From Archangiaceae bacterium (GTDB taxonomy: Bacteria; Myxococcota; Myxococcia; Myxococcales; Myxococcaceae): a stretch of 15,909 bases of DNA. The stretch is taken from assembly GCA_043750125.1 (NCBI GenBank), contig JAYVCD010000237.1, positions 1 through 15,909 on the forward strand, read 5' to 3'. Position numbers and translations under genes: made by a program. Numbering within the stretch: the first letter of the stretch is position 1; every line of letters starts with the position of its first letter. This document shows positions 1-15,675 of the stretch, piece by piece. The notes beneath the pieces were generated by a model, which made no database searches, was not told the DNA's origin, and worked only from the letters and a program-made list of their open reading frames with translations.

Positions 1-101
1 CCGTTGATCCCGAGAGCAGTCGGTCCGTTGATCCCGAGAGCAGTCGGTCCGTTGATCCCGAGAGCAGTCGGTCCGTTGATCCCGAGAGCAGTCGAGGGAC
101 G
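1..101 (+). repeat. Head-to-tail 24-bp tandem repeat (CCGTTGATCCCGAGAGCAGTCGGT) ending in a REP-like imperfect palindrome
   Basis: Exact copies at 1-24, 25-48 and 49-72. A fourth copy at 73-94 continues as AGGGACG, giving CCGTTGATCCCGAGAGCAGTCGAGGGACG with a TCCC/GGGA stem. There are no spacers. The array may extend left of the window. Confidence 0.9.
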
Positions 102-1068
102 CTCGTTTTTCTTTGGCGTGCTGCTGCTGCTCACCCTGCTTCCGGCGGCCGCCTTTGCGCAGCGCGAGACGACGCGCGACTCGCTGGACCGGCTGGAAGA
201 AACGCTGACCCTGCGGCTCGAGGCAGGCACCGGGCTGGTGATCAAAGACCTCGTTCCGGCGATCGTCGTCAGCGTCAACCCGGCGTTCGAAGAGACGAAG
301 GCCTGGTTTCCCACTGCCGCGCTCGCCACCCTGGTTCGGGTCTTCGGAGCCGCGGGCCTTCGCTCGTGCGAGGCGTGCCGCGCTCCCCGGCTGTACATGG
401 CCGACGGAAAGATCGAGCACATCACCACCAACCTCGGCACTCCTGAGATTACCCGCCTGGACGACATGGTCCGGGGGAAGGGAGCCCCGGCGCGGACGGC
501 GATCTGGTTGGACGAGACGGCCGAAGGCGTGAGCATCCGGATCATCGACCTGCGCAACAGCCGGATCGTGATGGCCGAGAACTTCGACCCTTCGCTGACC
601 GAGCCGGCGCAAACCGAGAAGAACCTGGCGCTCGCCCGCGAGCTCGACCGGCGCGCGCGGGGCAACAGCATCACCCAGGCCTTCGTCGACGTGACCGTCT
701 TCCCCAATCAGCACATCTCGTTCGATTGGGCCGAGCAGTGGGGCGACAACAACACCAACCTCTCGGGCTTTACGATTTCAATCCTGGATCCGGTGGTGGG
801 CGTCGGCGGCTCGTACTACCGGGTGCTCCCGTTCGCCTTCAACCTGATGGTCGGAGCGAAGGTGCTGCTCAGCGTACCGACCGGGTTGGTGCGCGCTCTG
901 AGCCCGAACTCAGGCAACGTCATCGACCCGCTGCTGACCGGAGTCTTCGTGGTTCGGTTTCCGTTCGGCCGTTCGAACTACGGAATCGCGCTGACCGTGT
1001 CGACCAACGGGAAGGTCGGACTTGGATTGTCCTTGTTGAACATCTCTTTGCTGCCCTTCTTGCCATGA
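4..1068 (+). CDS. Exported protein with a CsgG/FlgO/LpoB-like periplasmic domain and a C-terminal outer-membrane beta-strand region; start uncertain (TTG at 4, 28, 52 or 76, or upstream of the window)
   Basis: The frame is open from position 1. Signal peptide FFFGVLLLLTLLPAAAFA-Q; CEAC motif; VSIRIIDLRNSRIVMA strand pattern typical of CsgG/TolB-N-like folds. The C-terminal third consists of alternating amphipathic strands (VGVGGSYY, LMVGAKVLL, YGIALTVST, VGLGLSL). The stop overlaps the next start (ATGA 1065-1068). Confidence 0.7.
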   Translation: MIPRAVGPLIPRAVGPLIPRAVGPLIPRAVEGRSFFFGVLLLLTLLPAAAFAQRETTRDSLDRLEETLTLRLEAGTGLVIKDLVPAIVVSVNPAFEETKAWFPTAALATLVRVFGAAGLRSCEACRAPRLYMADGKIEHITTNLGTPEITRLDDMVRGKGAPARTAIWLDETAEGVSIRIIDLRNSRIVMAENFDPSLTEPAQTEKNLALARELDRRARGNSITQAFVDVTVFPNQHISFDWAEQWGDNNTNLSGFTISILDPVVGVGGSYYRVLPFAFNLMVGAKVLLSVPTGLVRALSPNSGNVIDPLLTGVFVVRFPFGRSNYGIALTVSTNGKVGLGLSLLNISLLPFLP

Positions 1069-1694
1069 ACCGAACCCTGCTCATCTGTCTTGCCTTGTGC
1101 AGTGGTTGCGCTGCTCGCAACTACACCTACTACCTGATTGAACCGGCGCCGACGAAGCACCCGGCGCTGAAGGAAGAAGGCACGTTGACCCGCCCGTTCG
1201 GCTTCGGCTCGACGACCGCGATGAAGGTCCGCTGGAACGACGGGAACCTGATCACCGAGGTCGACATTCCGATGCTCGCGACCGGGCAGCGCATCGTGGT
1301 CGAGCACGGTGCGGGCAGCCGCGATGTGAAGACCATTCCTCCCACCCGCGTCGTCGCTCCGCCCCCGACGGCCGCCGACGCGTCGCTGATCGAGGCCTAC
1401 CGTGCGCGAGGCTTGCGGGTCGATGACACCGCGCCCGAAGTCAGCATCAGCCGGGCCCGAACGCTGATGCAGGAAGCCACCAAGACCGGCAACTATTCGC
1501 TCGCGCTCGAGTGGTGCGAGACGGTGTTGCAGCGGTACAAATCGCACCCGGAATTCTTGCGCGCGAAGGCCTCGCTGCTGTTGATGATGGGGGAACGCGA
1601 CAAGGCGATCGAGGTCTACGAGCAGGTCGAGACGATCGAAAGCGATCCCACGGTGCGCAAGAAGCTCGAAGAACTCCAAAAGCAGCAAAAGTAA
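1065..1694 (+). CDS. Lipoprotein with C-terminal TPR-like helices (209 aa)
   Basis: ATG 1065 overlaps the upstream TGA. MNRTLLICLALCSG-C lipobox. The segment ARTLMQEATKTGNYSLALEWCETVL...FLRAKASLLLMMGERDKAIEVYEQV fits TPR consensus. The track start at 726 is an upstream overextension. Confidence 0.8.
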   Translation: MNRTLLICLALCSGCAARNYTYYLIEPAPTKHPALKEEGTLTRPFGFGSTTAMKVRWNDGNLITEVDIPMLATGQRIVVEHGAGSRDVKTIPPTRVVAPPPTAADASLIEAYRARGLRVDDTAPEVSISRARTLMQEATKTGNYSLALEWCETVLQRYKSHPEFLRAKASLLLMMGERDKAIEVYEQVETIESDPTVRKKLEELQKQQK

Positions 1695-2422: not shown

Positions 2423-3040
2423 GTGCAACGGCGCGCGAAGGGACATGAAGAGAGTTGGCTGCTCAGTTACGCAGACCTGATCACCAACCTGCTGCTGTTC
2501 TTCGTCGTGCTGCTCAGCGCGGCGCAGCTGAACAAGAGCCGAATGCAGCAGATCGTCAAGAGCATCTCGGGCGCTGAACAGCCGGCGAGCCTCGAGTCGA
2601 TTCGAAAAGAAATCGACGCGCAGATCGCGAAGAAGGAACTGCAGCAGCTGGTGCAGACCACGCTGACCGCCGAAGGGCTCGAGCTGTCGTTGAATTCCGG
2701 GCTGGTGTTCGATTCGGGGAAGGCCGTCATCCGTTCCGAGTTCGACAAGACCGTCACCTCGATGCTGCAGGTCCTGGTCCCGTACTCGACGAAGTACAAC
2801 TTCGCCGTCGAGGGCCACACCGACCCGACTCCGATGCTCAGCGGCGGCAGCAACTGGGATCTTTCCAGCGGTCGCGCGATCGTCGTTCGCCAGCGACTGG
2901 AAGACATCGGCATCGTGCGCACCCGCATTCGGGTCGAGGGTTACGCGGACACCAAGCCGCTGCCCGAAGAGCAACTCAAGGGGCTTTCCCCCGAAGAACG
3001 CCTGGCCCGGCATCGCCGCGTCGTCGTGAGGATCTACTGA
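2423..3040 (+). CDS. motB: MotB/PomB-type stator B subunit with OmpA-like peptidoglycan-binding domain (205 aa)
   Basis: GTG start after GGAG. WLLSYADLITNLLLFFVVLL carries the essential Asp (D18). A plug-like amphipathic helix follows (KSRMQQIVKSI). OmpA_C motifs VEGHTD, NWDLSSGRA, GYADTKP and RHRRV are present. Confidence 0.92.
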   Translation: MQRRAKGHEESWLLSYADLITNLLLFFVVLLSAAQLNKSRMQQIVKSISGAEQPASLESIRKEIDAQIAKKELQQLVQTTLTAEGLELSLNSGLVFDSGKAVIRSEFDKTVTSMLQVLVPYSTKYNFAVEGHTDPTPMLSGGSNWDLSSGRAIVVRQRLEDIGIVRTRIRVEGYADTKPLPEEQLKGLSPEERLARHRRVVVRIY

Positions 3041-4890
3041 TGAGACCTTCAATTTTTCTGCAGTCGCTGATCTTGCTGTTCGCGCTGCCGCTGAGCGCCG
3101 GCGCCCAGTCGACCGCGATTCCGGTGCCTGAGAAGCACATTCCCGGTCCGGTGCTGATGGACCTTCGCGCGCTCGAGAGTCAGTTTGATCTCTTCTTGAG
3201 CCGCGACTGCGCCCCCGAGCGGTGCGTCTCGAAGGGCTGTACCTACCGGGACCACGCGGTGGTGGATCTTCCCCGCGGCTCTTCCCTTCCCGGGCTGGGC
3301 CAGAACGAAGGGCTCGGCGCGGTCGCTCCTCAGGAATACCTGACCCAGGCGCGGTGCGAGTTCGCCCACGAGAAATCGATTTCCGCCAAGGACGTTCAGG
3401 CGTTGGTGAAGCGGCTCGAACAGCGGCTGTCGAAAGGCTGGCTGCAGGTCACCGTCAGCCGCCAGGTGCTGGAGCCGATTTCGCCTGCGCTGGCGATTTC
3501 GCCCCCGCAACTTCCCGACCCCGCGCTGGCGGCGAAGGTCGAGCCCCCGCCTGCCCTCGCCCCCCCTCCGGCCAAGTGGGAATGGGACGTAGCGCTGCGC
3601 GAGCTGTGGGTCGGGTTGCTGCCGCACTTCTCGTGGATGATTGCCCTGCTGTTGGGCACCCTGGCGACGCTGGCCATCATCTGGGGCGGCCGCCGCCTGG
3701 GCCGCGAATCGCTGGAAGAGAAGGCGATGCTGGCGCAGCTGGCCGCAGGGGACACCCAGGAAAAGAAAGAAGAGCCCGCGCTGGCGGTGATTCCGCTTCC
3801 CACCGAAGGCGAAGATCAGCTGAAGCTTGCGGGCACGAACGAAGAGCAGGGGTTCATCACCGAGCAACAGCGGTTGTGGAACGAGCGCATCGCCCAGACC
3901 GAGCTGGGCAAGGACGAAGGCGGAGTGGTCGAGCTGCTTCGCGCCTGGCTCAAGGCCGGTGAGTTTGCCTATCTGGCGAAGGCGATCTTCGTCTTCGGAG
4001 AACGGCTCTCGCTGGCGTTCTCTTCCGACGGGCAGCTGGCGGTGCGGAAGGTCGAATTTGCCGAGTACCTCAAGGATCTCGATGAGAAGCAGCTGCCGAC
4101 CGACGCCGAATTCTTCCGGGTGCTCAACCACCACGCGATTTCGTCCTCGCTGCTCGCGCAGTCGGACGCAGAGAGCTACCGCAGCCTTCGCGAAGAGTTT
4201 GGGGCCGACGGGCTGGCCCACCTGATCGAGAGCCTGCCGGCACGAAATGGAGCGCTGCTGTTCGCGATGGTGCCTTCCGATTGCCAGCACGAAGTGTCGC
4301 GCGCGCTGTCCCAGGACCTGCGGTTGCAGGTGGCCACCCAGCTGCTGGTGTCGAACCGGATCAGCAATGAAGAGCGACAGCACCTGTTCGAGACGCTCGA
4401 CAACGCGCGGGCGGGGCTGCCTTTGCAGATGCCGGCCGAGAGCAGCTCGCACGAGATCATGGACCGCGGGCGCGAGTTTGACGCCGCCGGGGCCTTGTCC
4501 GTTCTGTGCTCGCACCTGGATCCCGAGGACCGGAAAGCGGTCTTCACCCGGGCGCTCAACCGCGCCAGCGGCACCCACCCGTTCTGGTACGAAGAGATTC
4601 TCTACCCCGACATGCTGTTGAAGCTGCCGACCGAGTTGCAGGCAGACCTGCTGCTCGAGGTCGACATTCGGGCGCTGGCGGGTTGGACCTCGATGCAATC
4701 GGCGGCCTGGCAGGAAGGGTTCCTCTCACGCCTTTCGCCCACGCTGAACAACGCGATGCGGGCCAACCTCGGGGTCGGCTCGCGCGCCAATCAACTGCAG
4801 CAGGCGCGACGCGGGCACTCCGAGCTGGTCAGCGGGGTGAAGAAGCTGGTCGCGCGCGGCAAGGTCTCGTTCGCCCAGATCCTCGCGTAA
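3040..4890 (+). CDS. Putative FliF-FliG-like fusion rotor protein: signal peptide, RBM-like periplasmic domain, Pro-rich linker, TM helix, FliG-M/C-like cytoplasmic region (616 aa)
   Basis: TGATG coupling to motB. N-terminal signal peptide (LILLFALPLSAGA-Q) and TM at about 3631-3690. The C-terminal ~225 aa align nearly gap-free by eye with FliG-M and FliG-C (LLLEVD vs LLQEVD, EGFLSRLS vs EKFLRNMS, VKKLVARGKVSF vs VRRLAETGEMVI; reference recalled from memory). Confidence 0.75.
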   Translation: MRPSIFLQSLILLFALPLSAGAQSTAIPVPEKHIPGPVLMDLRALESQFDLFLSRDCAPERCVSKGCTYRDHAVVDLPRGSSLPGLGQNEGLGAVAPQEYLTQARCEFAHEKSISAKDVQALVKRLEQRLSKGWLQVTVSRQVLEPISPALAISPPQLPDPALAAKVEPPPALAPPPAKWEWDVALRELWVGLLPHFSWMIALLLGTLATLAIIWGGRRLGRESLEEKAMLAQLAAGDTQEKKEEPALAVIPLPTEGEDQLKLAGTNEEQGFITEQQRLWNERIAQTELGKDEGGVVELLRAWLKAGEFAYLAKAIFVFGERLSLAFSSDGQLAVRKVEFAEYLKDLDEKQLPTDAEFFRVLNHHAISSSLLAQSDAESYRSLREEFGADGLAHLIESLPARNGALLFAMVPSDCQHEVSRALSQDLRLQVATQLLVSNRISNEERQHLFETLDNARAGLPLQMPAESSSHEIMDRGREFDAAGALSVLCSHLDPEDRKAVFTRALNRASGTHPFWYEEILYPDMLLKLPTELQADLLLEVDIRALAGWTSMQSAAWQEGFLSRLSPTLNNAMRANLGVGSRANQLQQARRGHSELVSGVKKLVARGKVSFAQILA

Positions 4891-6884
4891 TGAAGACCTT
4901 CGGCCCGCTGGGAATGCTCCTCGTGCTCTGCGCCTGCAACAAGGTGCCGATCATCGACATCCACGCGGGCTTTGCTCTGGCCGATGCCACCTGGTTCGAG
5001 GACGAGCAGACGCTGTTCATCTTCTACAAGGTCAATGCCGAGCAGGGGCTGGGGCCCGACAGCCAGATTGAAGTCACCTGGCGCACCGACGACGTAGAAG
5101 TTCCGTGGACGGCGGTCGAGACCTTGACCCCGATTCACACCCACATTCCGGTCGACTGCGGTCCGCACACGATGTGCGGCAGCACCAGCCTCAAGATCCA
5201 AAGGGTGCCGAGGCTGGTCGGGGTTCGGCTTCGCTATCACAAGGAAGGCTCGGTCTTCCTCACCGCCCCGGTCACCTACAACATCATCGGCACCGGCCCC
5301 GCGTTCACCCACCGCAGCCTGATCGTCTACGGGGTCTTCGAGCGGGCCAACAACACGGTGCAGTGGCGCGCGCGTCACCAGTTTCCCACCCTGCGCAACG
5401 AGGACGTGCAGGGCCTGGGGTTGCTGCGGGACTTCCGGATTACGGATCCGCGGTACGGCTCTGTCGTCGCACCGATGGGCAACCCTTACGGCTACGCGTC
5501 CGCGGCCACCTGCCCCACCACCCTGACCGCCTTGAGCTGGGGGCCGGTCGCGACCAATGGGCGGGCGATCTTCGATGTGAACAAGCTGCCGCTGGAAGCC
5601 TCGACCGCCCCCGGAATCTGCGCGCAGTCGGTGGTGACCGACGCGAAGGGCACGTTCGAGGCGGTGGCGATTGCGCGCAAGAATCCCGATGTCCACCCGG
5701 CTTTCCCGGTGTTGCGCACTCCGATTCGCGCCAATACCGAGGTGGGGTTTCTGCTTCGGCCGTGCATGCGGGAAATTTCGAAGGTCCACCTGTCGATGCA
5801 GGTGCAGCGGTTGATGCTCGAGGGCGCTCCGGAAATCTGCATCGACGACTTCAAGAACCCGGCGTTTGCCGATTCTCTCGCGGCGAGGCTTCGGTTGAAG
5901 ATCGACGAAGTGCGCGCCGCGGGAAAGGACATGGTCCTCACGCTCGCGCTGCACCACGACGATTCCAAAGGAGAGCTGGGCCTCGCGGTCGAGAAGGCGC
6001 TCGAGCAGATTCTTCCCTTCGAGCGGGACAAGACTTCGCCGCGGGTCAGTGGGGCGTTCGTCTTCGACAGTCTGAAGTACGCGATCGTGAGCCCGACGAT
6101 GCGCTCGCTGGTGCTGTGGTGCCCAGCGAGCATCGATGCGGTCGACCTCGACAAGATCCCCGATGAGGCCCAGCGCTCGTGTCCCCTGGTGCCCGATTTT
6201 CCGGACCTGAAGCTCGGGCCCTTCAAGTTCAGCAACCTGCCGATCCTCCCCAGTCGGCCGCAGTACCTGACCTTCATCGCAAAATATTCCGAAGCGCAGG
6301 CCGGGAAGATGCTCGAGCTGGGCTTCCTTGCTCCAGAGCGAACGCCGATTTCACAGAACGTTCAGCTCGGCGAATTTGGGGTGGCGAGCTTCTTCAACAA
6401 TGAGCGGCTCACGGCCGCGCCCACCGACGCCTTCTCGTTCTGCGCCGGCGGCGACCCGCTGTCCTCGAACGTCGTGTTTCGCAGCGCGTCCTTTCCGGCG
6501 CCGCAGCCGATTTCGAGCCTGCCGGAATTTCACAAGTTCGCTCCGGCGAGCGCGTACGAAATTGGCTTGTTCTGGAATTTCCCTTTCCTGTTGAAGGCGA
6601 AATACGAGTTCGTGGTCGCAGGCGCGGCGACCGCATTCTCAGTCACGGTTCCGTTCGGGATCACCGACGTGGCCCATAAAAATTACGCCAGCGAGCTGTG
6701 GACCGCCGCCGAGTTCCCGGTGGCGAAGACGCTCGGGCAGTGCACCCGCTACTGCGATCACCCGACCTTCGACACGGGCGGGGTCTACAACGTCGCCGCG
6801 ACGTATCGCGAGGCGTTCGCCGCCCAGTGCTACGACCCGCTGTACCCGACGCCCGCGGACGGACCCTTTCCCCGTGATCCGTAG
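4890..6884 (+). CDS. Large Cys-rich lipoprotein of unknown function (664 aa)
   Basis: TAATG coupling at 4888-4892. MKTFGPLGMLLVLCA-C lipobox. Multiple Cys, some closely paired (CGPHTMC, CTRYC). The track start at 4506 is an overextension. Confidence 0.75.
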   Translation: MKTFGPLGMLLVLCACNKVPIIDIHAGFALADATWFEDEQTLFIFYKVNAEQGLGPDSQIEVTWRTDDVEVPWTAVETLTPIHTHIPVDCGPHTMCGSTSLKIQRVPRLVGVRLRYHKEGSVFLTAPVTYNIIGTGPAFTHRSLIVYGVFERANNTVQWRARHQFPTLRNEDVQGLGLLRDFRITDPRYGSVVAPMGNPYGYASAATCPTTLTALSWGPVATNGRAIFDVNKLPLEASTAPGICAQSVVTDAKGTFEAVAIARKNPDVHPAFPVLRTPIRANTEVGFLLRPCMREISKVHLSMQVQRLMLEGAPEICIDDFKNPAFADSLAARLRLKIDEVRAAGKDMVLTLALHHDDSKGELGLAVEKALEQILPFERDKTSPRVSGAFVFDSLKYAIVSPTMRSLVLWCPASIDAVDLDKIPDEAQRSCPLVPDFPDLKLGPFKFSNLPILPSRPQYLTFIAKYSEAQAGKMLELGFLAPERTPISQNVQLGEFGVASFFNNERLTAAPTDAFSFCAGGDPLSSNVVFRSASFPAPQPISSLPEFHKFAPASAYEIGLFWNFPFLLKAKYEFVVAGAATAFSVTVPFGITDVAHKNYASELWTAAEFPVAKTLGQCTRYCDHPTFDTGGVYNVAATYREAFAAQCYDPLYPTPADGPFPRDP

Positions 6885-7701
6885 CGTTCTGCTCGCAGTG
6901 GTCCTGGCCCTGCCGCCGGCATTTGCCGCCGACGGCCCCCGCGTGCCCCAGGCTCAGCCGCCGCCCGAAGGGAAGCTCGCACCGAAGCAGGAAGACACGA
7001 GCATCGAGCGGTACCGGACCCCGTTCCAGGTGCTCAGTGAAAGCACGATTGGGCTCGCGTCCCGGGCGGTGCTCTTCGATTGGCGCAAGAGCACCGTCGC
7101 GGCGGGTTTGACCACCGGAGCCCTGCTCGAATTGAACAATTTCTACAGCACCCGGCTGGGCGGCTTCGTGCGGATGCCGGTCGGCAATCTGACCGCTGAG
7201 CTGGCCGTGACCCGGGTGTTCACCTGGGGCAGCGACAGCTCGGAAAAACTGTCGCTGACCCCGTATCGCCAGTCGGGGCGTCCGAGCCGCATCGAGCTCG
7301 AGGTGAACCTGGCCTACGCGTTGTTGGAAGGAGTGGGAACCCCGCGGCTGGGACTGCTGCCCAGCGCCGAGCTGGTGTTCTCGATCGACGTAGGGTTTCG
7401 GTACCTCTACTACCCGGGCGCATTGGGGAAGGCGAACGCCGGCCAGGTGGTCGAGGCGATCTTCGCTGCCAAGATTTCTGAGCGCGAGCTCGACTACCTC
7501 GAGCGCGAGCGACTTCCCGGAATGCAGATCGACGCGGGCCGGTACGGCTTGCTGGCCGGGTTTGCCCTGGACCTCTACTTCCGCACCGGGATCTTCCTCG
7601 AGCCGAAGGTGATGCTCGCGATTCCGGTTCTCTCAGGCCTCAGTGGCTCGCGGCTCGGGTGGTGGTGGGAATTGTCGATGGCGCTGGGCGTGTCGTTGTG
7701 A
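6874..7701 (+). CDS. Putative small outer-membrane beta-barrel protein (275 aa)
   Basis: Signal peptide VLLAVVLALPPAFA-A. Amphipathic strands TRLGGFVRM, TAELAVTRV, IELEVNLAY, FSIDVGFRY, LAGFALDLYF, IFLEPKVML and a terminal strand WWWELSMALGVSL. 11-nt overlap with the previous gene. Confidence 0.7.
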   Translation: MIRSVLLAVVLALPPAFAADGPRVPQAQPPPEGKLAPKQEDTSIERYRTPFQVLSESTIGLASRAVLFDWRKSTVAAGLTTGALLELNNFYSTRLGGFVRMPVGNLTAELAVTRVFTWGSDSSEKLSLTPYRQSGRPSRIELEVNLAYALLEGVGTPRLGLLPSAELVFSIDVGFRYLYYPGALGKANAGQVVEAIFAAKISERELDYLERERLPGMQIDAGRYGLLAGFALDLYFRTGIFLEPKVMLAIPVLSGLSGSRLGWWWELSMALGVSL

Positions 7702-9599
7702 CGAGCTGGCTGTTCCTCGCGCTGGTGCTGTCGACCGGGGCAGAGCAGAGCGAGCCCGACCCTTCGAACCAGACCCTGCTTTTCTACAACGCCCGAATGG
7801 CGATGCGAGAAGGGCGGCCGGCGGACACGCTGAAGCTGTGGCTGCTGCGAAACAGCATTGCCGAGCAGGGGTTCATTGGCAGCAACGACGAAGAGTTCCG
7901 CTCGGTGGTCTGGGCGGCGCTCGGGAGCCTGGGCCTGTGCCAGGACGGTTTCGCCAAAGACGTAGAGGGCGGAGCGGGCCTGTGGCCGCTGTCGCTTCAC
8001 AACTGGGTGCTCTACTCGTCGCGGGGAATCCCTCCGGGGCCGCGCAACCCGTACGACGCTTTCGAGGCCGCGCGGCAGCAGCGGTTCATTTCACTGCACA
8101 GCGTGCTGTCGATCGCCGAGCTGCGCACGGTGAGCTTCTTCCGCAAGTCGTGCTTCTTGCCTGAGACGACGCTGATTGCCCTGGGGAAGTCTCCCTCGCT
8201 GGATCTGACCGACCGGCTCTCGACCGGCCCTTTCTTGCGGCAGCTGCTGGTGTTGTCGTTGAAGACCCTGGTGCGCGAGAAGGTGCAGAGCGTGAGCGCG
8301 ATCGAGGCTCGGATCTTCGACCTCGACCTCGCGATGGCCCAGATGCTCGAACGGAAGGCGCGGCGGGCGGGAATGGCAGCGAAGCAGCGCGCCAGGACCC
8401 TGGGGATTTCTGAAGCCGGAGCCGGCGAAGCCCGCGAGCAGGCGGCGCAGTGGCCGGCCCATTCGGCGCAAGCGGCCTTCTTGCGCAAGAGCCTCACCTG
8501 GGACTCGAGCGAGTGGCTGACCTTGAACCGACAGCGCCGGCTCTTCCTCTACGCCCAGGCCAAGGCGTTCTCTACCCCGGCCCAACCGCCCGACCCGCTG
8601 GTGCTCTCGCTGATCGACTCGCTCATCGACCGCAACGAAGGCGCCGAGCTGGAGTCGTGGATTGGGAATTTCGATGCGAAAGATTCCGCGACACGGCGCA
8701 CGGCGCTCACCTCGGGAGAACGGGGAAAGCGGTTGCTCGAGCTCGAGCCCGCCAGCGGCTTTCGGGAAAGAGCGACGATTGCAATGCACCGAGGGGTCGA
8801 ATTCCTCGAGGCGGGGTCGATGCAGGAAGCGCTGCGCTCGTTCGCGTACGCGATGGCGAAGTCCGAAGAGTCGCGCGACGCCGCGGTGACGTTGTCCCTG
8901 GCCCGGCGTTGGGTGTCGTACGTGCTGTCGCGCTACGAGACGAACGAGCAGGTGATTGCGACGCTGAAGGCGCTGGTGCCGCGACAAGAATACAACCTGG
9001 TGATCGAAGATTTGATCTGGCGGGCGGCGCTGCGCGCGGACGAGAAGTCGTTTGACCTGGTGGTGGCGAGCCTTCAGCGCGGCAGCGCACTGGACGCCCG
9101 GGTCGCGCGGCTTCGATTGCTCGCGCAGGGAAAGCAGGGGGCGCTGGGCACGGACCTGCGCGACGCGACGGTCGACGAGCCGCATCTGGCGCTGCGTTTT
9201 GCGCGGCAGTTGCTCGAGAAGCTGGAAGCCGAAGACGTGGACGTGCGCCGTGCGAACATTCCGATGCTCAAGCTGTTGCGACAGATCTTCGACTCGTTGA
9301 TCACGTCGAAGGCGAAGGCCCAGGCTCGCGCGGCAGAAGAGTTGATCGCGCGCGCCCAGGGCATTCTCGAAGGCTTGAGCCTGTTCGACAATTCGACCGT
9401 GGGAAAAGCGCGCGAGCTCTCGCCGCGACACGAGACCTTCGCCGGGAACATTCGGCTGGCTCCTTCCGACCCGTTGCCGTGGCCGTTCGAGACCCCGGTC
9501 GCCGAGGCGCCCTCGCCGTTCACCCCGCTGGTGCTGCGGCCGGTGGAATGGCGCGACCCCAAAGGGGCGCTGGTGTTCGGCTGGAAGGTCACCGATTGA
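7698..9599 (+). CDS. Large exported alpha-helical (TPR-like) protein (633 aa)
   Basis: GTGA overlap at 7698-7701. Short signal-like N-terminus MTSWLFLALVLSTGA. TPR-like pairs LFYNARMAMREGRPADTLKLW and AMHRGVEFLEAGSMQEALRSFAYA. Confidence 0.7.
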   Translation: MTSWLFLALVLSTGAEQSEPDPSNQTLLFYNARMAMREGRPADTLKLWLLRNSIAEQGFIGSNDEEFRSVVWAALGSLGLCQDGFAKDVEGGAGLWPLSLHNWVLYSSRGIPPGPRNPYDAFEAARQQRFISLHSVLSIAELRTVSFFRKSCFLPETTLIALGKSPSLDLTDRLSTGPFLRQLLVLSLKTLVREKVQSVSAIEARIFDLDLAMAQMLERKARRAGMAAKQRARTLGISEAGAGEAREQAAQWPAHSAQAAFLRKSLTWDSSEWLTLNRQRRLFLYAQAKAFSTPAQPPDPLVLSLIDSLIDRNEGAELESWIGNFDAKDSATRRTALTSGERGKRLLELEPASGFRERATIAMHRGVEFLEAGSMQEALRSFAYAMAKSEESRDAAVTLSLARRWVSYVLSRYETNEQVIATLKALVPRQEYNLVIEDLIWRAALRADEKSFDLVVASLQRGSALDARVARLRLLAQGKQGALGTDLRDATVDEPHLALRFARQLLEKLEAEDVDVRRANIPMLKLLRQIFDSLITSKAKAQARAAEELIARAQGILEGLSLFDNSTVGKARELSPRHETFAGNIRLAPSDPLPWPFETPVAEAPSPFTPLVLRPVEWRDPKGALVFGWKVTD

Positions 9600-10249
9600 C
9601 TCCTAAGGAAATGCATCAGGCGATGAAGGCGCGCAAGCAGGAGCTGCGCACGGCCCTGCGGGCGATGCGGAAGGCGGCGCGCGAGAAGATGGACCAGAAC
9701 CCCGCGGTGCAGCGCGCGAAGGCCCGGCGGCGGCGAATACGGCGAGCGATTGGAATTGCGATCGGGGTGCTGCTGCTGTTGCTCATCCGCTGCGACTGCG
9801 GGCCCGGGGTGCCACCGGAAGGGCCGAAGGTCGAGGCCCCGGCGCCCAAAGAGCTCAAGCCGAAGAAGACGGTCACGGTGCGGGTGGGGCCGAAGAAGCC
9901 GCTCCAGGGCGACGGGACGAAGCAGAACCGCGGCGGCCTCGGCATCGGAGCTCCGGCGGCTCCGACGTGGATCGACCAGTTTCAGGTGCAGGTCGCCGCG
10001 AGGAGCCCGCGACTGGCGTTGTGCTTCACCGGAATCGATCGGCCGGGGGCGCTGCGGTGGTCGGCCTCGGTCAACCCCCAAAGCGGCGCGGTGTCGGATC
10101 ACGAGCTCGAGCCGGTCGGGCAGAGCAGCGAGCTGTCGACCGAGCAGCGCGAGTGCGTGGTGCGGGTGCTCTCGAGCCCCGTCTACAAGCTGACGGCTCC
10201 GGAGAAAGAGGCGCTGCCGAATCGGGTCAGCCTGGTGATCGAGTTCTGA
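9596..10249 (+). CDS. Single-pass inner-membrane protein with Pro/Lys-rich linker and TonB-C/AgmX-PglI-C-like domain (~217 aa; alternative ATG starts 9611 and 9623)
   Basis: TTGA overlap at 9596-9599. Highly basic N-terminus, TM AIGIAIGVLLLLLI, and linker GPGVPPEGPKVEAPAPKELKPKK. C-terminal helix-strand-strand-helix-strand pattern with Cys pair (LALCF...ECVVRVL) and terminal strand VSLVIEF. Confidence 0.65.
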   Translation: MTPKEMHQAMKARKQELRTALRAMRKAAREKMDQNPAVQRAKARRRRIRRAIGIAIGVLLLLLIRCDCGPGVPPEGPKVEAPAPKELKPKKTVTVRVGPKKPLQGDGTKQNRGGLGIGAPAAPTWIDQFQVQVAARSPRLALCFTGIDRPGALRWSASVNPQSGAVSDHELEPVGQSSELSTEQRECVVRVLSSPVYKLTAPEKEALPNRVSLVIEF

Positions 10250-11389: not shown

Positions 11390-11505
11390 GGGGTGTCTCC
11401 TGTAAATGACGCCGCATAGCATCGGGTGTTGCGCTTTGTGCATCCCCGTTGTGTCTAGCCAGAAAGCTTCCTCCCATTTCGTCCACTCTCCTCTCTGGTG
11501 AACCC

Positions 11506-11814
11506 TTGAAAACGACCAAAAAACCGCCGACCCGCACGCTCAACCCGATTCGGAACCCGGGAAAGACCGGCAAAGGGGCAACCAAGCCGGAAGCCAAATC
11601 GAAGAAAGCCGGCTGGAAAGCCGAGCATCCGCTGAACCCGATGCCCAACCGCAAGGTCCCCACTCACCCCCTCAACCCGATCGCGCAGCCTCCCGTTCCG
11701 GCCAAGCCGATTGTCATGGTGAATCCGATCGCCCAGCCTCCCGTTCCGGCCAAGCCGATTGTCTCGGTGAACCCGATGCCGCAGCCGGCGAAGAAAATTG
11801 AGTACTACAAGTAG
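11506..11814 (+). CDS. Small basic Pro/Lys-rich repeat peptide (~102 aa) with repeated (L/V)NP(I/M) motifs
   Basis: TTG 11506 follows GGTGA (track start 11449). GC3-rich codons. Synonymous differences between repeat copies keep the peptide. The stop lies 5 nt before the next GTG. Confidence 0.6.
   Translation: MKTTKKPPTRTLNPIRNPGKTGKGATKPEAKSKKAGWKAEHPLNPMPNRKVPTHPLNPIAQPPVPAKPIVMVNPIAQPPVPAKPIVSVNPMPQPAKKIEYYK
11674..11784 (+). repeat. 48-bp coding tandem repeat, about 2.3 copies (NPIAQPPVPAKPIVxV)
   Basis: Units start at 11674, 11722 and 11770 (AACCCGATCGCGCAGCCTCCCGTTCCGGCCAAGCCGATTGTC / AATCCGATCGCCCAGCCTCCCGTTCCGGCCAAGCCGATTGTC / AACCCGATGCCGCAG). Confidence 0.9.
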
Positions 11815-13279: not shown

Positions 13280-13903
13280 TTACGAAACCTGAGTTGCCGG
13301 GGGCTTGGGCATCCCCGCCAACAACCGTTCGGCCTCGGCCCCAATCGGCCCGTGGGGGTCGAGCACTCTGGCCTTCTCGAATGAAGCCCGTGAAGCCAGC
13401 AGCTCGCCCTTCAACTTCCGGGCGACACCCAGATTGAGGTGGACGTTGGCGTTCTCGGCGTCCATGTCGAGCGCCTCTTTGAACAGCCCCAGCGCCCGGT
13501 CGAGCTCGCCCGACAGCAGCGCCTCTTTCCCTGCCTGAATCTTCTTTTCCGAGTCATTGACCAGCTCGACTTCGAGCACGGTGCGCCCGGCGAGATTGAA
13601 GACCAGCATTCGAAGCAAGCCGGCCCAGTAGAAGGTGACGCCCTCGACCGCGGCGACAGCGGCCAGCGGCAAATCGGGCAGCAGTTGCTTGCCGCGAAAC
13701 TTGAAGCGGACCTTGGTGTAGCGGCCGCGCTTGGCCCAGACGACAACCTGGGTCTTGAGCTTGTTGAGCGACTCTTCGATCTTCTTCGGGTCGATTTCAA
13801 ACGGAAGAACGCGATCGTTGCTGTGCGCCCGCGCTTCCACCTTTTCGAACCGGTGCACCTGGATTTTCTTCTTCGAGGAGGCCTTCGGCTTCTTCGCTGT
13901 CAT
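13280..13903 (-). CDS. DUF4342-like domain plus C-terminal TPR protein (207 aa)
   Basis: KRGRYTKVRFKFRGKQLLPDLPL...VLEVELV resembles DUF4342. TPR consensus in GKEALLSGELDRALGLFKEALDMDAENANVHLNLGVARKLKGELLASRASFEKARVLDP. Start at ATG 13903. Confidence 0.75.
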   Translation of the reverse strand: MTAKKPKASSKKKIQVHRFEKVEARAHSNDRVLPFEIDPKKIEESLNKLKTQVVVWAKRGRYTKVRFKFRGKQLLPDLPLAAVAAVEGVTFYWAGLLRMLVFNLAGRTVLEVELVNDSEKKIQAGKEALLSGELDRALGLFKEALDMDAENANVHLNLGVARKLKGELLASRASFEKARVLDPHGPIGAEAERLLAGMPKPPATQVS

Positions 13904-13929
13904 AGGCCATAGGCTAGCATCCGCGCCCA
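13904..13929. promoter_or_regulatory. Putative bidirectional promoter with overlapping -10 elements
   Basis: + strand TAGCAT at 13915-13920. - strand TGcTAGCCT (hexamer 13916-13911), 7 nt before ATG 13903. Only 26 nt separate the divergent start codons and no SD is evident. Confidence 0.5.
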
Positions 13930-15675
13930 ATGGCCCAGCAGAGCATGTACACGGAGTCGCTCCGCGCTTTCTTGAAGCCGGTGCTTCATTACCTCGATGA
14001 CGAATCGGTCACCGAGATCATGATCAACGGTCCCAACGACATCTGGATCGAACGAAAGGGCAAGGTCATCAAGTCCGACGCCTTCTTCTCGGAAGAGGGT
14101 CTGCTCGGGGCCGCGCGCAACATGGCCCAGTTCGTCGGCCGCCCGCTCACCGACGAGCGCCCCCGCCTGGACGCCCGGCTTCCCGATGGCAGCCGGATCC
14201 ACGTGGTGCTGCCGCCGATCGCGCGCAAGGGCACCACGATCGCGATTCGAAAGTTCTTCAAGGACAAGCTCACCGTCGACCGCCTGGTCTCGTTCGGCTC
14301 GATCGTCCCGGCGATGGTCCGCACCATCGAAGCGGCGGTGATCGTGAAGTTGAACATGGTCGTCTCGGGAGGCACCGGCTCGGGCAAGACCACGCTGCTC
14401 AACGTGCTGTCGAACCTGATTCCCCGGGAAGAGCGAATTCTCACCATCGAAGACTCGGCGGAATTGCAGCTGAACCAGGAACACCTGGTGCCCTTCGAAT
14501 CGCGCCCCGCCGACAAGTTCGGGAAGGGCGAGGTGAACATGGGCATGTTGCTCCAGTCGGCGCTGCGACTTCGCCCCGACCGGATCATCGTCGGAGAAGT
14601 GCGCGGCGGCGAAGCGTTCGACCTGATGCAGGCGATGAACACCGGCCACGGCGGCTCGATGGCGACGGTGCACGCCAACACCCCGACCGACACCCTGCGC
14701 CGGCTCGAGTCGCTGTGCCTGATGAGCGGGGTCGAGCTGCCGATGGTCGCCGTCCGCGCGCAGGTCGCCTCGGCGATCAACTTCGTCGTGTGCTGCGAAC
14801 GCCTGCAAGACGGGTCTCGAAAAGTGAACGCCGTTTCCGAAGTGCTGCCGCTGAACGAGAAGGGCGACTACCGCACCCAGGATCTCTTCTTGTTCGTCCC
14901 GGTGTCGAAGGACGAAGACGGCAACATTCTGGGCTACCACGCTCCCACCGGAATTCTGCCGACCTTCCTCGCGAAGGCCCGGGCGTATGGGTTTACCGAT
15001 CTCACCCCTGAATTTTTCGACCCCGCGTCCTACGGAATCCCTCCCCCGCCCCTGCTTCACGGAGTCGGTGAGTCCGTTCACATTCAGTGGGTCGACTCGC
15101 TCAAGCACCGTGAGAAGCACATTCCAGATCCAGAAGAGTTCGCCTCGAACTGGACGGCATTCGAAGAGAAGTTGAGGGACGATGCGCGGCAGCGAAAGGC
15201 GGGGAAGACGGTTCCGATTCCCGGCTTTCACAGTTTGCTCCAGCTCGCCGCGCTGCCCGCCCAGGGCCCGTCGGTGGTCTCTCGCCCGAAGACCATTCCA
15301 GGCCCCGTGCCCCAGGCCGCGGCCCTGCCCCGCCAGACCCGGGCGCCTCCGCCCCGACAGGTCCCTGCTTCGAACCACGACGACGTGACCCCGGTACCTA
15401 CCCGCAATCCGCTGAACGCCGCCCGCCGGCCGACCCTCGACAACGACGATCAGCAGAGCATTCCCACCGGGACGCGGCAGGCCCACGGGGTGGACGAGCC
15501 GAAGGTCGAGATTTCAGAATCGCTGCTGGGTGAAGAGAGCCTCCAGGAGTCCGAGTCCAACGACCGGATTACCCAGCCCCCCCGCACCGTGGCGCGGCCG
15601 CCGTCGGGGGTGCCCGGACGCCCGGTCGCGCGCCCCGGAGTGTTGCCGCCCACCCGACCTCCGGTGAAGAAGTAG
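13930..15675 (+). CDS. cpaF: CpaF/TadA-family Tad pilus secretion ATPase with long disordered C-terminal tail (581 aa)
   Basis: VTEIMING, DARLPDGSRIH, Walker A GGTGSGKTT, Asp box TIEDSAEL, Walker B LRLRPDRIIVGEVRGGEA and His box MNTGHGGSMATVHAN. Alternative start at ATG 13945. Confidence 0.93.
   Translation: MAQQSMYTESLRAFLKPVLHYLDDESVTEIMINGPNDIWIERKGKVIKSDAFFSEEGLLGAARNMAQFVGRPLTDERPRLDARLPDGSRIHVVLPPIARKGTTIAIRKFFKDKLTVDRLVSFGSIVPAMVRTIEAAVIVKLNMVVSGGTGSGKTTLLNVLSNLIPREERILTIEDSAELQLNQEHLVPFESRPADKFGKGEVNMGMLLQSALRLRPDRIIVGEVRGGEAFDLMQAMNTGHGGSMATVHANTPTDTLRRLESLCLMSGVELPMVAVRAQVASAINFVVCCERLQDGSRKVNAVSEVLPLNEKGDYRTQDLFLFVPVSKDEDGNILGYHAPTGILPTFLAKARAYGFTDLTPEFFDPASYGIPPPPLLHGVGESVHIQWVDSLKHREKHIPDPEEFASNWTAFEEKLRDDARQRKAGKTVPIPGFHSLLQLAALPAQGPSVVSRPKTIPGPVPQAAALPRQTRAPPPRQVPASNHDDVTPVPTRNPLNAARRPTLDNDDQQSIPTGTRQAHGVDEPKVEISESLLGEESLQESESNDRITQPPRTVARPPSGVPGRPVARPGVLPPTRPPVKK

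Follow-up and report, generated by a model that had tools for sequence, protein, structure and literature searches.

The DNA examined here is a stretch of 15,909 nucleotides (nt) from contig JAYVCD010000237.1 of an Archangiaceae bacterium (assembly GCA_043750125.1), referred to in its full length as the window, with a GC content of 61–69%. On its plus strand an open reading frame (ORF) at positions 3040–4890 (ATG 3040–3042, TAA 4888–4890) encodes a product of 616 amino acids (aa), which has a single transmembrane (TM) helix, with a homologue of FliG, a protein of the flagellar rotor, on its cytoplasmic side and a putatively FliF-like domain on its periplasmic side. The ORF belongs to a cluster that appears in the window as consecutive plus-strand genes whose ends touch or overlap, and genes beyond position 10249 lie on the minus strand. 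The cluster genes are as follows.

4..1068, plus strand: first cluster gene in the window, secreted or outer-membrane-like, with no Pfam or NCBIfam match
1065..1694, plus strand: TPR lipoprotein of 209 aa with a lipobox-like LCSGC; the orthologue in a related genome (L026:5900-6508) matches TPR_19 with 35 bits
1709..2419, plus strand: motA-like stator A subunit of 236 aa (Pfam MotA_ExbB, 54.7 bits)
2423..3040, plus strand: motB-like stator B subunit of 205 aa, with plug, Asp-bearing TM helix and OmpA-type peptidoglycan-binding domain
3040..4890, plus strand: bitopic protein of the inner membrane (616 aa), with a FliF-like periplasmic part and a FliG-like cytoplasmic part
4890..6884, plus strand: Cys-rich lipoprotein of 664 aa, no family, found downstream in 11/11 loci with DNA there
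6874..7701, plus strand: secreted protein of 275 aa, no family, syntenic in 5/5 close loci
7659..9599, plus strand: protein of about 640 aa, no family, start uncertain, syntenic in 5/5 close loci
9479..10249, plus strand: last cluster gene, membrane-anchored, about 200–256 aa, start uncertain, syntenic in 5/5 close loci

The preliminary description of this DNA placed the ORF directly behind motB, and the junction is indeed tight: the motB stop TGA (3038–3040) overlaps the ATG by one nucleotide, a shared A. At the other end the final A of the TAA is also the first base of the ATG that starts the lipoprotein gene, again a 1-nt overlap. The stop/start overlaps on both sides suggest translational coupling, and the layout suggests that the ORF is co-translated with motA/motB, the lipoproteins and the secreted proteins. 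The conserved cluster comprises 9 to 12 genes. Aside from TPR, the partner genes gave no Pfam, NCBIfam or PADLOC family, and an ESM Atlas search with the 664-aa lipoprotein returned no usable match. The orthologue of the first gene (4..1068) occupies the same place in 4/5 close loci, the fifth contig stopping short of the gene. Its 5' start in the window is uncertain, both because the contig begins there and because of a repeat at the contig edge. That repeat (positions 1–94) is a perfect 24-nt tandem repeat of 3.9 copies, which translates as LIPRAVGP when read in frame with the first ORF and could be either real or an assembly-edge artefact.

Architecture of the 616-aa protein

The protein can be divided into the following parts.

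Residues ~1–22 (3040..3105, plus strand): predicted signal peptide, with a hydrophobic N-terminus and an A-x-A-like site at which cleavage would occur
Residues 33–147 (3136..3480, plus strand): periplasmic alpha-beta-beta-alpha-beta domain, RBM3-like
Residues ~196–217 (3625..3690, plus strand): hydrophobic core of the TM helix
Residues 280–309 (3877..3966, plus strand): conserved cytoplasmic helices with a weak likeness to the FliF tail (DP...WL)
Residues 294–612 (3919..4875, plus strand): region homologous to FliG, whose N, M and C domains it matches collinearly
Residues 519–609 (4594..4866, plus strand): FliG C-terminal helical subdomain, with the torque-helix equivalent at about 567–576

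An AlphaFold2 (AF2) model built with an alignment of 48 family members has a mean predicted local distance difference test score (pLDDT) of 85.7. In the signal-peptide region a helix at residues 5–14 is followed by pLDDT below 50 at residues 17–30. The periplasmic domain is modelled as helix 36–56, strands 62–75 and 98–110, helix 116–130 and strand 136–143, with pLDDT of about 97 for these elements and 52–78 for the loop that joins strands 1 and 2. Four Cys residues of the domain are invariant, and a near-invariant SLPGLG lies in that loop. A disordered Pro-rich linker leads to the TM helix, which AF2 extends over residues 182–219 and in which, in the family alignment, W199 and W215 are near-invariant and R218 is invariant; the membrane helix of the preliminary description is confirmed. 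On the cytoplasmic side the model shows a disordered acidic linker, helices 258–288 and 293–306, and then the FliG part.

Homology to FliG

With the single sequence as query FliG is invisible. A Pfam scan of the 616-aa protein gave no FliG model at E ≤ 1, NCBIfam gave no FliG, and phmmer against the PDB gave 0 matches at E ≤ 10. The only Pfam match was MgtE_N over residues 338–432 with 24.2 bits, below the 25.9-bit cut-off (22.6 bits in the genome scan). Profiles were therefore needed, and a family profile of 48 members was compared with the PDB and with 20 FliG genes taken from other genomes of the phylum, 13/13 scanned of which contain Pfam FliG_N, FliG_M and FliG_C.

Against the PDB, the six best matches of the family profile are all FliG, including 1lkv (7.4e-11), 4fhr, 3hjl, 3ajc and 8umd_B, the last being full-length Salmonella FliG, matched over profile positions 282–586. 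MgtE appears in the same search at 3.1e-5 over 68 residues. In hhalign against the 20 FliGs the probability is 97.5% with an E value of 6.6e-12 over 298 columns, residues 294–612 corresponding to FliG columns 27–329 of 337, at a sequence identity to FliG of 14–17%. Structure comparison leads to the same protein. Foldseek of the AF2 model lists FliG at ranks 1–12 (best E 3.2e-4), and FliG is again on top with VIA-align, both in a second look and when 48,161 chains were scanned independently of Foldseek. Three VIA-align results are given here with their scores.

1lkv, FliG M+C: 10.9; 121 residues aligned, root-mean-square deviation (rmsd) 3.7 A
1qc7_B, C-terminal domain of FliG alone: 10.6; 88/89 residues (model residues 519–609) at rmsd 2.2 A
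8umd_B, Salmonella FliG: 10.0; model residues 307–616 against FliG 5–326

The register of the N domain differs between the hhalign and VIA-align alignments. Two features of a FliG were found, namely the helical domains N, M and C in collinear order and a C-terminal subdomain bearing the torque helix. That residues 294–612 are a full FliG homologue with N, M and C, visible at the level of profile and structure only, is well supported.

The preliminary description had proposed a natural membrane-anchored FliG with M and C domains on the strength of three sequence blocks aligned with enterobacterial FliG. The anchored homologue stands, M and C are both matched, and the homology proves wider in that N is included. 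The three blocks are present in the same register as in the profile–profile alignment: the first (residues 395–453, nt 4222–4398) matches the EHPQ region of FliG, the second (residues 481–526, nt 4480–4617) matches ARM_C up to the MFxF motif, and the third (residues 537–542, 561–566 and 600–611) matches the segment from LLKEVD to the C-terminal GxI. Of the checks it had suggested, superposition of an AlphaFold model on FliG gave 2.2 A for the C-terminal domain; in the profile check the single sequence showed neither FliG_M nor FliG_C and the family profile placed FliG first.

The Pfam scan raises the alternative that this membrane protein carries a helical domain functionally unrelated to FliG, either a Mg2+ sensor of the MgtE_N type or a generic ARM-like domain. 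MgtE_N is the sole Pfam match of the single sequence and is matched by 20/48 family members; true FliGs match it too, and MgtE's N-terminal domain belongs to the same helical superfamily as FliG. However, the MgtE match is below its cut-off, spans only about 70–95 residues and is unaccompanied by any CBS or channel part. FliG is ahead by six orders of magnitude and over three times the length, and its C-terminal subdomain, absent from MgtE, is the part that superposes at 2.2 A. In the Foldseek list MgtE comes at rank 21 with an E value of 0.11. With FliG outscoring MgtE and the helical C-terminal subdomain present, the result is the opposite of the one that the preliminary description had named as fatal to its proposal, and we consider an MgtE-like or generic domain very improbable.

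The homologue nonetheless departs from canonical FliG at sites central to its function, and these departures weigh against reading it as a rotor of the canonical kind. Pfam also counts against descent from the flagellar rotor: the single-sequence scan showed no FliG model, and FliG_C was matched at E ≤ 0.01 by only 2/48 family members. The EHPQ(R) motif of the FliG M domain binds FliM; in the family EHPQ aligns to S-L-P-A, with the Pro alone kept. The charges of the torque helix, which in E. coli FliG are given as R281, D288 and D289 in PMC12505986, are lost: the column of the invariant Arg holds a positive residue in 2/48 members, and the two Asp columns hold acidic residues in 0/48 and 2/48. 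MFxF is replaced by (F/L)-Y-P. Conserved instead are E/D524, E532, R534, D542, W516 and W549. What the protein shares with FliG is the LLxEVD box, the hydrophobic core and a position beside genes for a MotA/MotB stator. FliG itself is soluble, docks non-covalently on FliF and is encoded in a flagellar gene set, whereas the protein described here has a signal peptide, a covalent TM anchor and a periplasmic domain, stands among non-flagellar neighbours and is present in genomes without flagellin.

The stator genes

The product of motB matches MotB_plug (56.8 bits) and OmpA (44.6 bits) in Pfam. Its best PDB matches are Bacillus subtilis MotB (1.4e-21) and then PomB, and its YAD motif aligns to MotB. 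For the motA product the best NCBIfam match is PomA with 59 bits, TolQ reaching only an E value of 0.12, and all of its PDB matches at E ≤ 0.01 (8/8) are flagellar MotA or PomA. No NCBIfam equivalog cut-off is reached by either protein. The features tested for a flagellar-type stator were found: in MotB the plug, the TM Asp and the OmpA-like domain, and in MotA a four-TM channel with a charged cytoplasmic pair. A phylogeny of MotAB that separates flagellar from generic stators is described in PMC12505986. By its sequence, the stator here is of the flagellar kind.

The charged pair of MotA, R94 and E102, is near-invariant in 22 orthologues with a spacing of i, i+8. In E. coli it is MotA R90 and E98 that contact FliG, according to the same paper, and from the spacing and an alignment with Paenibacillus MotA we infer that R94 and E102 are their counterparts. 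Near-invariance of the pair suggests that the cytoplasmic face of MotA is used. A complex prediction of MotA with residues 470–616 gave a score of 0.24 and a mark of 0.32, which we treat as neutral.

A further system built on a MotAB-like channel is the anti-phage system Zorya, and in PADLOC the MotB does match ZorB models with 62 bits. It scores higher, at 108 bits, to flagellar MotD/MotB models of NCBIfam. MotA had no ZorA match, and six other proteins tested had no PADLOC match of any kind. ZorA has a long tail, and the 236-aa MotA is too short to carry one. With MotB as the only match, a Zorya-like reading was rejected, and we give it hardly any credence.

The FliF-like half

The alpha-beta-beta-alpha-beta order of the periplasmic domain is the topology of ring-building motifs. 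In Salmonella FliF, RBM3 consists of residues 228–270 and 382–438, with the beta-collar (271–381) inserted between them, as laid out in PMC8270960. The only long loop of the periplasmic domain here (residues 76–97, 22 residues, containing SLPGLG) sits at the position of the FliF beta-collar. The preliminary description had called this half FliF (RBM3 and TM); the fold and topology fit RBM3, and the part of the claim that would require a FliF sequence match in the periplasmic domain found none. Pfam gave no YscJ_FliF or YscJ_FliF_C match for the 616-aa protein, and in hhalign against 11 FliF proteins the periplasmic part aligned nowhere.

Structure comparisons of this domain do not single out FliF. 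Its fold is equally close to the cytoplasmic C-terminal domains of CDF proteins, to OsmC and to KH-like domains, and unrelated ferredoxin-like domains score the same as RBM3. A domain-only AF2 model from 13 sequences is of low confidence (pLDDT 63.5); Foldseek with it gave no match at E ≤ 0.001 and a mixture of OsmC, ribosomal S3, PrgK, FliF and CDF domains. An ESM feature search returned a YscJ_FliF_C cluster at 0.85, which we regard as a lead only.

Inside the membrane, hhalign against the 11 FliF proteins pairs residues 280–309 weakly with the C-terminal tail of FliF (28 columns, E 0.0012, probability 19.6%), in which W518 is invariant in 11/11. A hidden Markov model (HMM) of the FliF tail lands on the same residues in 16/48 family members, with weak scores that do not rise above the shuffled maximum.

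A FliF reading of this half is plausible on topology, position and domain order. The order RBM, TM, cytoplasmic tail and FliG in one chain is also that of engineered FliF-FliG fusions from Salmonella and Vibrio, which are functional and form rings according to PMC8270960 and PMC11481574 (see also PDB 8z4d). The protein described here differs in being natural. Compared with FliF, it has one periplasmic domain of about 115 residues and lacks TM1, RBM1, RBM2 and the beta-collar, the collar being replaced by the 22-residue loop. A signal peptide takes the place of the N-terminal anchor, and there is no export gate to house. In effect the protein would be a natural, trimmed FliF-FliG fusion, its FliF half being plausible rather than proven.

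Conservation and distribution

Homologues number 241 at 90% clustering, and among the 120 matches listed nearly all are 590–650 aa long. At 50% identity the family forms 156 clusters, mostly of full length, which argues against a decaying remnant. A search confined to homologues of 1079–3080 aa found none, which is weak evidence as that length range alone was searched. Within the phylum, 19/201 genomes (including that of the window) contain a family member, and the other 36 matching genomes match only through a true FliG or MgtE. Two large genera of the same bacterial family have a member in 0/16 and 0/13 genomes. One family member comes from Pseudobacteriovorax (Bdellovibrionota).

The order motA, motB and the gene for the FliG-like protein is kept in 12/12 close loci, followed by the lipoprotein gene wherever the locus reaches that far. 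From motA to the last cluster gene, the whole set of seven genes is syntenic in 5/5 longer loci. In 4/4 loci there are three more genes beyond the position of the upstream edge of the window, two for lipoproteins and one for a protein of 400 aa whose last residue is Phe. In the related genome L026 the region upstream of the cluster (L026:650-1297 and 1294-1983) encodes a LolA-like periplasmic carrier (42 bits) and a further lipoprotein, which fits a lipoprotein-rich machine.

Three distant members (L029, L030 and L031), 549–594 aa long, represent a divergent second form of the system. In these, motB lies directly upstream of the gene in 3/3 cases as part of an upstream motAB, and a different set of neighbours is common to all three. 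The family profile matches them only from position 120, which indicates that their periplasmic domain differs.

Relation to flagella

In the genome containing the window, of which 89% is covered by the assembly's estimated completeness, neither flagellin nor any rod or hook match was found. Five other carriers were tested. Two are without flagellin (G162 and G197), with FliG_C matches that are partial only (21.6 and 27.3 bits, in frames of 667–676 aa). The other three (G088, G034 and G026) have a canonical FliG and flagellins, located on contigs other than that of the cluster. The genes adjoining ORF 3040–4890 are not flagellar. Presence of the cluster both with and without flagellar genes indicates that it neither replaces the flagellum nor belongs to it as a dependent component.

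The protein might instead be a flagellar accessory, in which an extra stator and a docking protein tune or replace part of the rotor and are left over in non-flagellated species. A stator of the flagellar type would suit such a role, as would the canonical FliG and flagellins in 3/5 of the other carriers. However, the cluster retains 60–84% identity and intact synteny in the flagellin-free genomes (that of the window, G162 and G197), one of which, as noted, has no rod or hook match. Contigs carrying the cluster differ from those carrying flagellar genes, its neighbours are not flagellar, and the FliM-binding motif is lost. An accessory role is improbable on this evidence.

Two other loci in the genome of the window concern rotor-type proteins. 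Contig C284 (L001) carries a cluster resembling that of type III secretion systems (T3SS), with genes at 1981-2835, 494-1960 and 1-531, all on the minus strand. It encodes a YscJ/FliF-family lipoprotein (80 bits) followed by a 488-aa FliG_C protein with a long Pro-rich tail, which gives 36.9 bits with Pfam FliG_C and 75.8% in hhalign to true FliG; the third ORF is FliH-like by eye only. To our knowledge injectisomes are normally without FliG. On the minus strand of contig C132 (20767-21234) there is a FliM-domain match of 46.4 bits within a 505-aa open frame, which is the second protein of rotor type in this genome, where filament genes are lacking.

A proposed machine and its alternatives

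Joint action of FliG and MotAB is not known outside the flagellum. We consider it probable that ORF 3040–4890 encodes a rotor-derived bitopic protein, part of a FliF-FliG-derived, non-flagellar machine driven by MotAB. In such a machine, ion flow through MotA/MotB, presumably in a 5:2 assembly like that of flagellar relatives, would turn the MotA ring, which would push on the FliG_C-like domain. As this domain is covalently tied through the membrane, force or torque could be passed to the periplasmic and outer-membrane partners encoded alongside, the protein serving either as a small ring that rotates or as a track that moves. Such a machine would work independently of the flagellum.

A more detailed version can be put forward only tentatively. 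The rotor may have arisen by read-through fusion of fliF and fliG, keeping RBM3, TM2, the tail and FliG, and a dedicated MotAB may drive rings or arrays of it as a flagellum-independent rotary or track-type envelope machine. Torque might then cross the peptidoglycan to reach the lipoproteins and the partners in the outer membrane, and would serve surface motility, secretion or remodelling of the envelope in Myxococcota and some Bdellovibrionota. Ring formation, rotation and contact with MotA are all inferred. On expression, the sequencing runs listed are neutral: six DNA data sets from two studies, both of sediment metagenomes, and no RNA data set.

The loss of the torque-helix charges would also suit a static scaffold or regulator, in which the FliG-like domain recruits, activates or brakes MotAB and energy is transferred by conformational change, in the manner of TonB or TolA, through MotB or other partners, with no rotating or travelling FliG assembly. 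Lipoproteins and secreted proteins as partners are also a feature of systems such as Tol-Pal or Agl-Glt. The non-flagellar 5:2 motors Agl-Glt, Tol-Pal, ExbBD-TonB and GldLM resemble the cluster in that genes for an ion-driven A/B channel stand with those for lipoproteins, TPR proteins and proteins of the outer-membrane type in diderm bacteria. Those systems have A subunits of the TolQ/ExbB type and couple through TM helices, whereas here a flagellar-type MotA/MotB with a plug is joined by a partner with the FliG fold. TolA, TonB and GldM act by TM helices inside the ring of A subunits and not by a cytoplasmic FliG fold, a plug and a peptidoglycan anchor are both retained in MotB itself, and the charged pair of MotA is near-invariant. 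A static scaffold is rather unlikely in our judgement.

In the full text of papers, as distinct from supplementary tables, only engineered FliF-FliG fusions were found, and neither a natural or non-flagellar fusion nor this cluster. In its architecture the protein is a new version of the FliG/FliF rotor, and the non-flagellar machine is likely to be new as well. A conserved envelope operon that is also found in bacteria without flagella suggests an ion-driven machine not previously described. If the proposal of a MotAB-driven machine is right, a rotor–stator module has been reused for another job outside the flagellum, and the cluster would offer a minimal single-chain system like the MS/C-ring in which to study force transfer from a 5:2 motor to its partner. 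A survey of flagellar loss remarks on rotor proteins in non-motile species, possibly with another function (bioRxiv 10.1101/2024.12.05.626484). The present cluster is a concrete case for that remark, and the trimmed FliF-FliG fusion a possible snapshot of the exaptation of flagellar parts.

Other features of the window

Downstream of the conserved cluster, a 48-nt tandem repeat of 2.4 copies with 89% matches is located at positions 11674–11786, encoding a Pro-rich repeat in a small ORF (11449–11814). Also outside the cluster, a plus-strand gene at 13930–15675 encodes a secretion ATPase of the CpaF/T2SSE type (174.7 bits) whose C-terminus is extended by about 200 aa rich in Pro, and it is preceded by a gene for a TPR protein on the minus strand (13280–13930).

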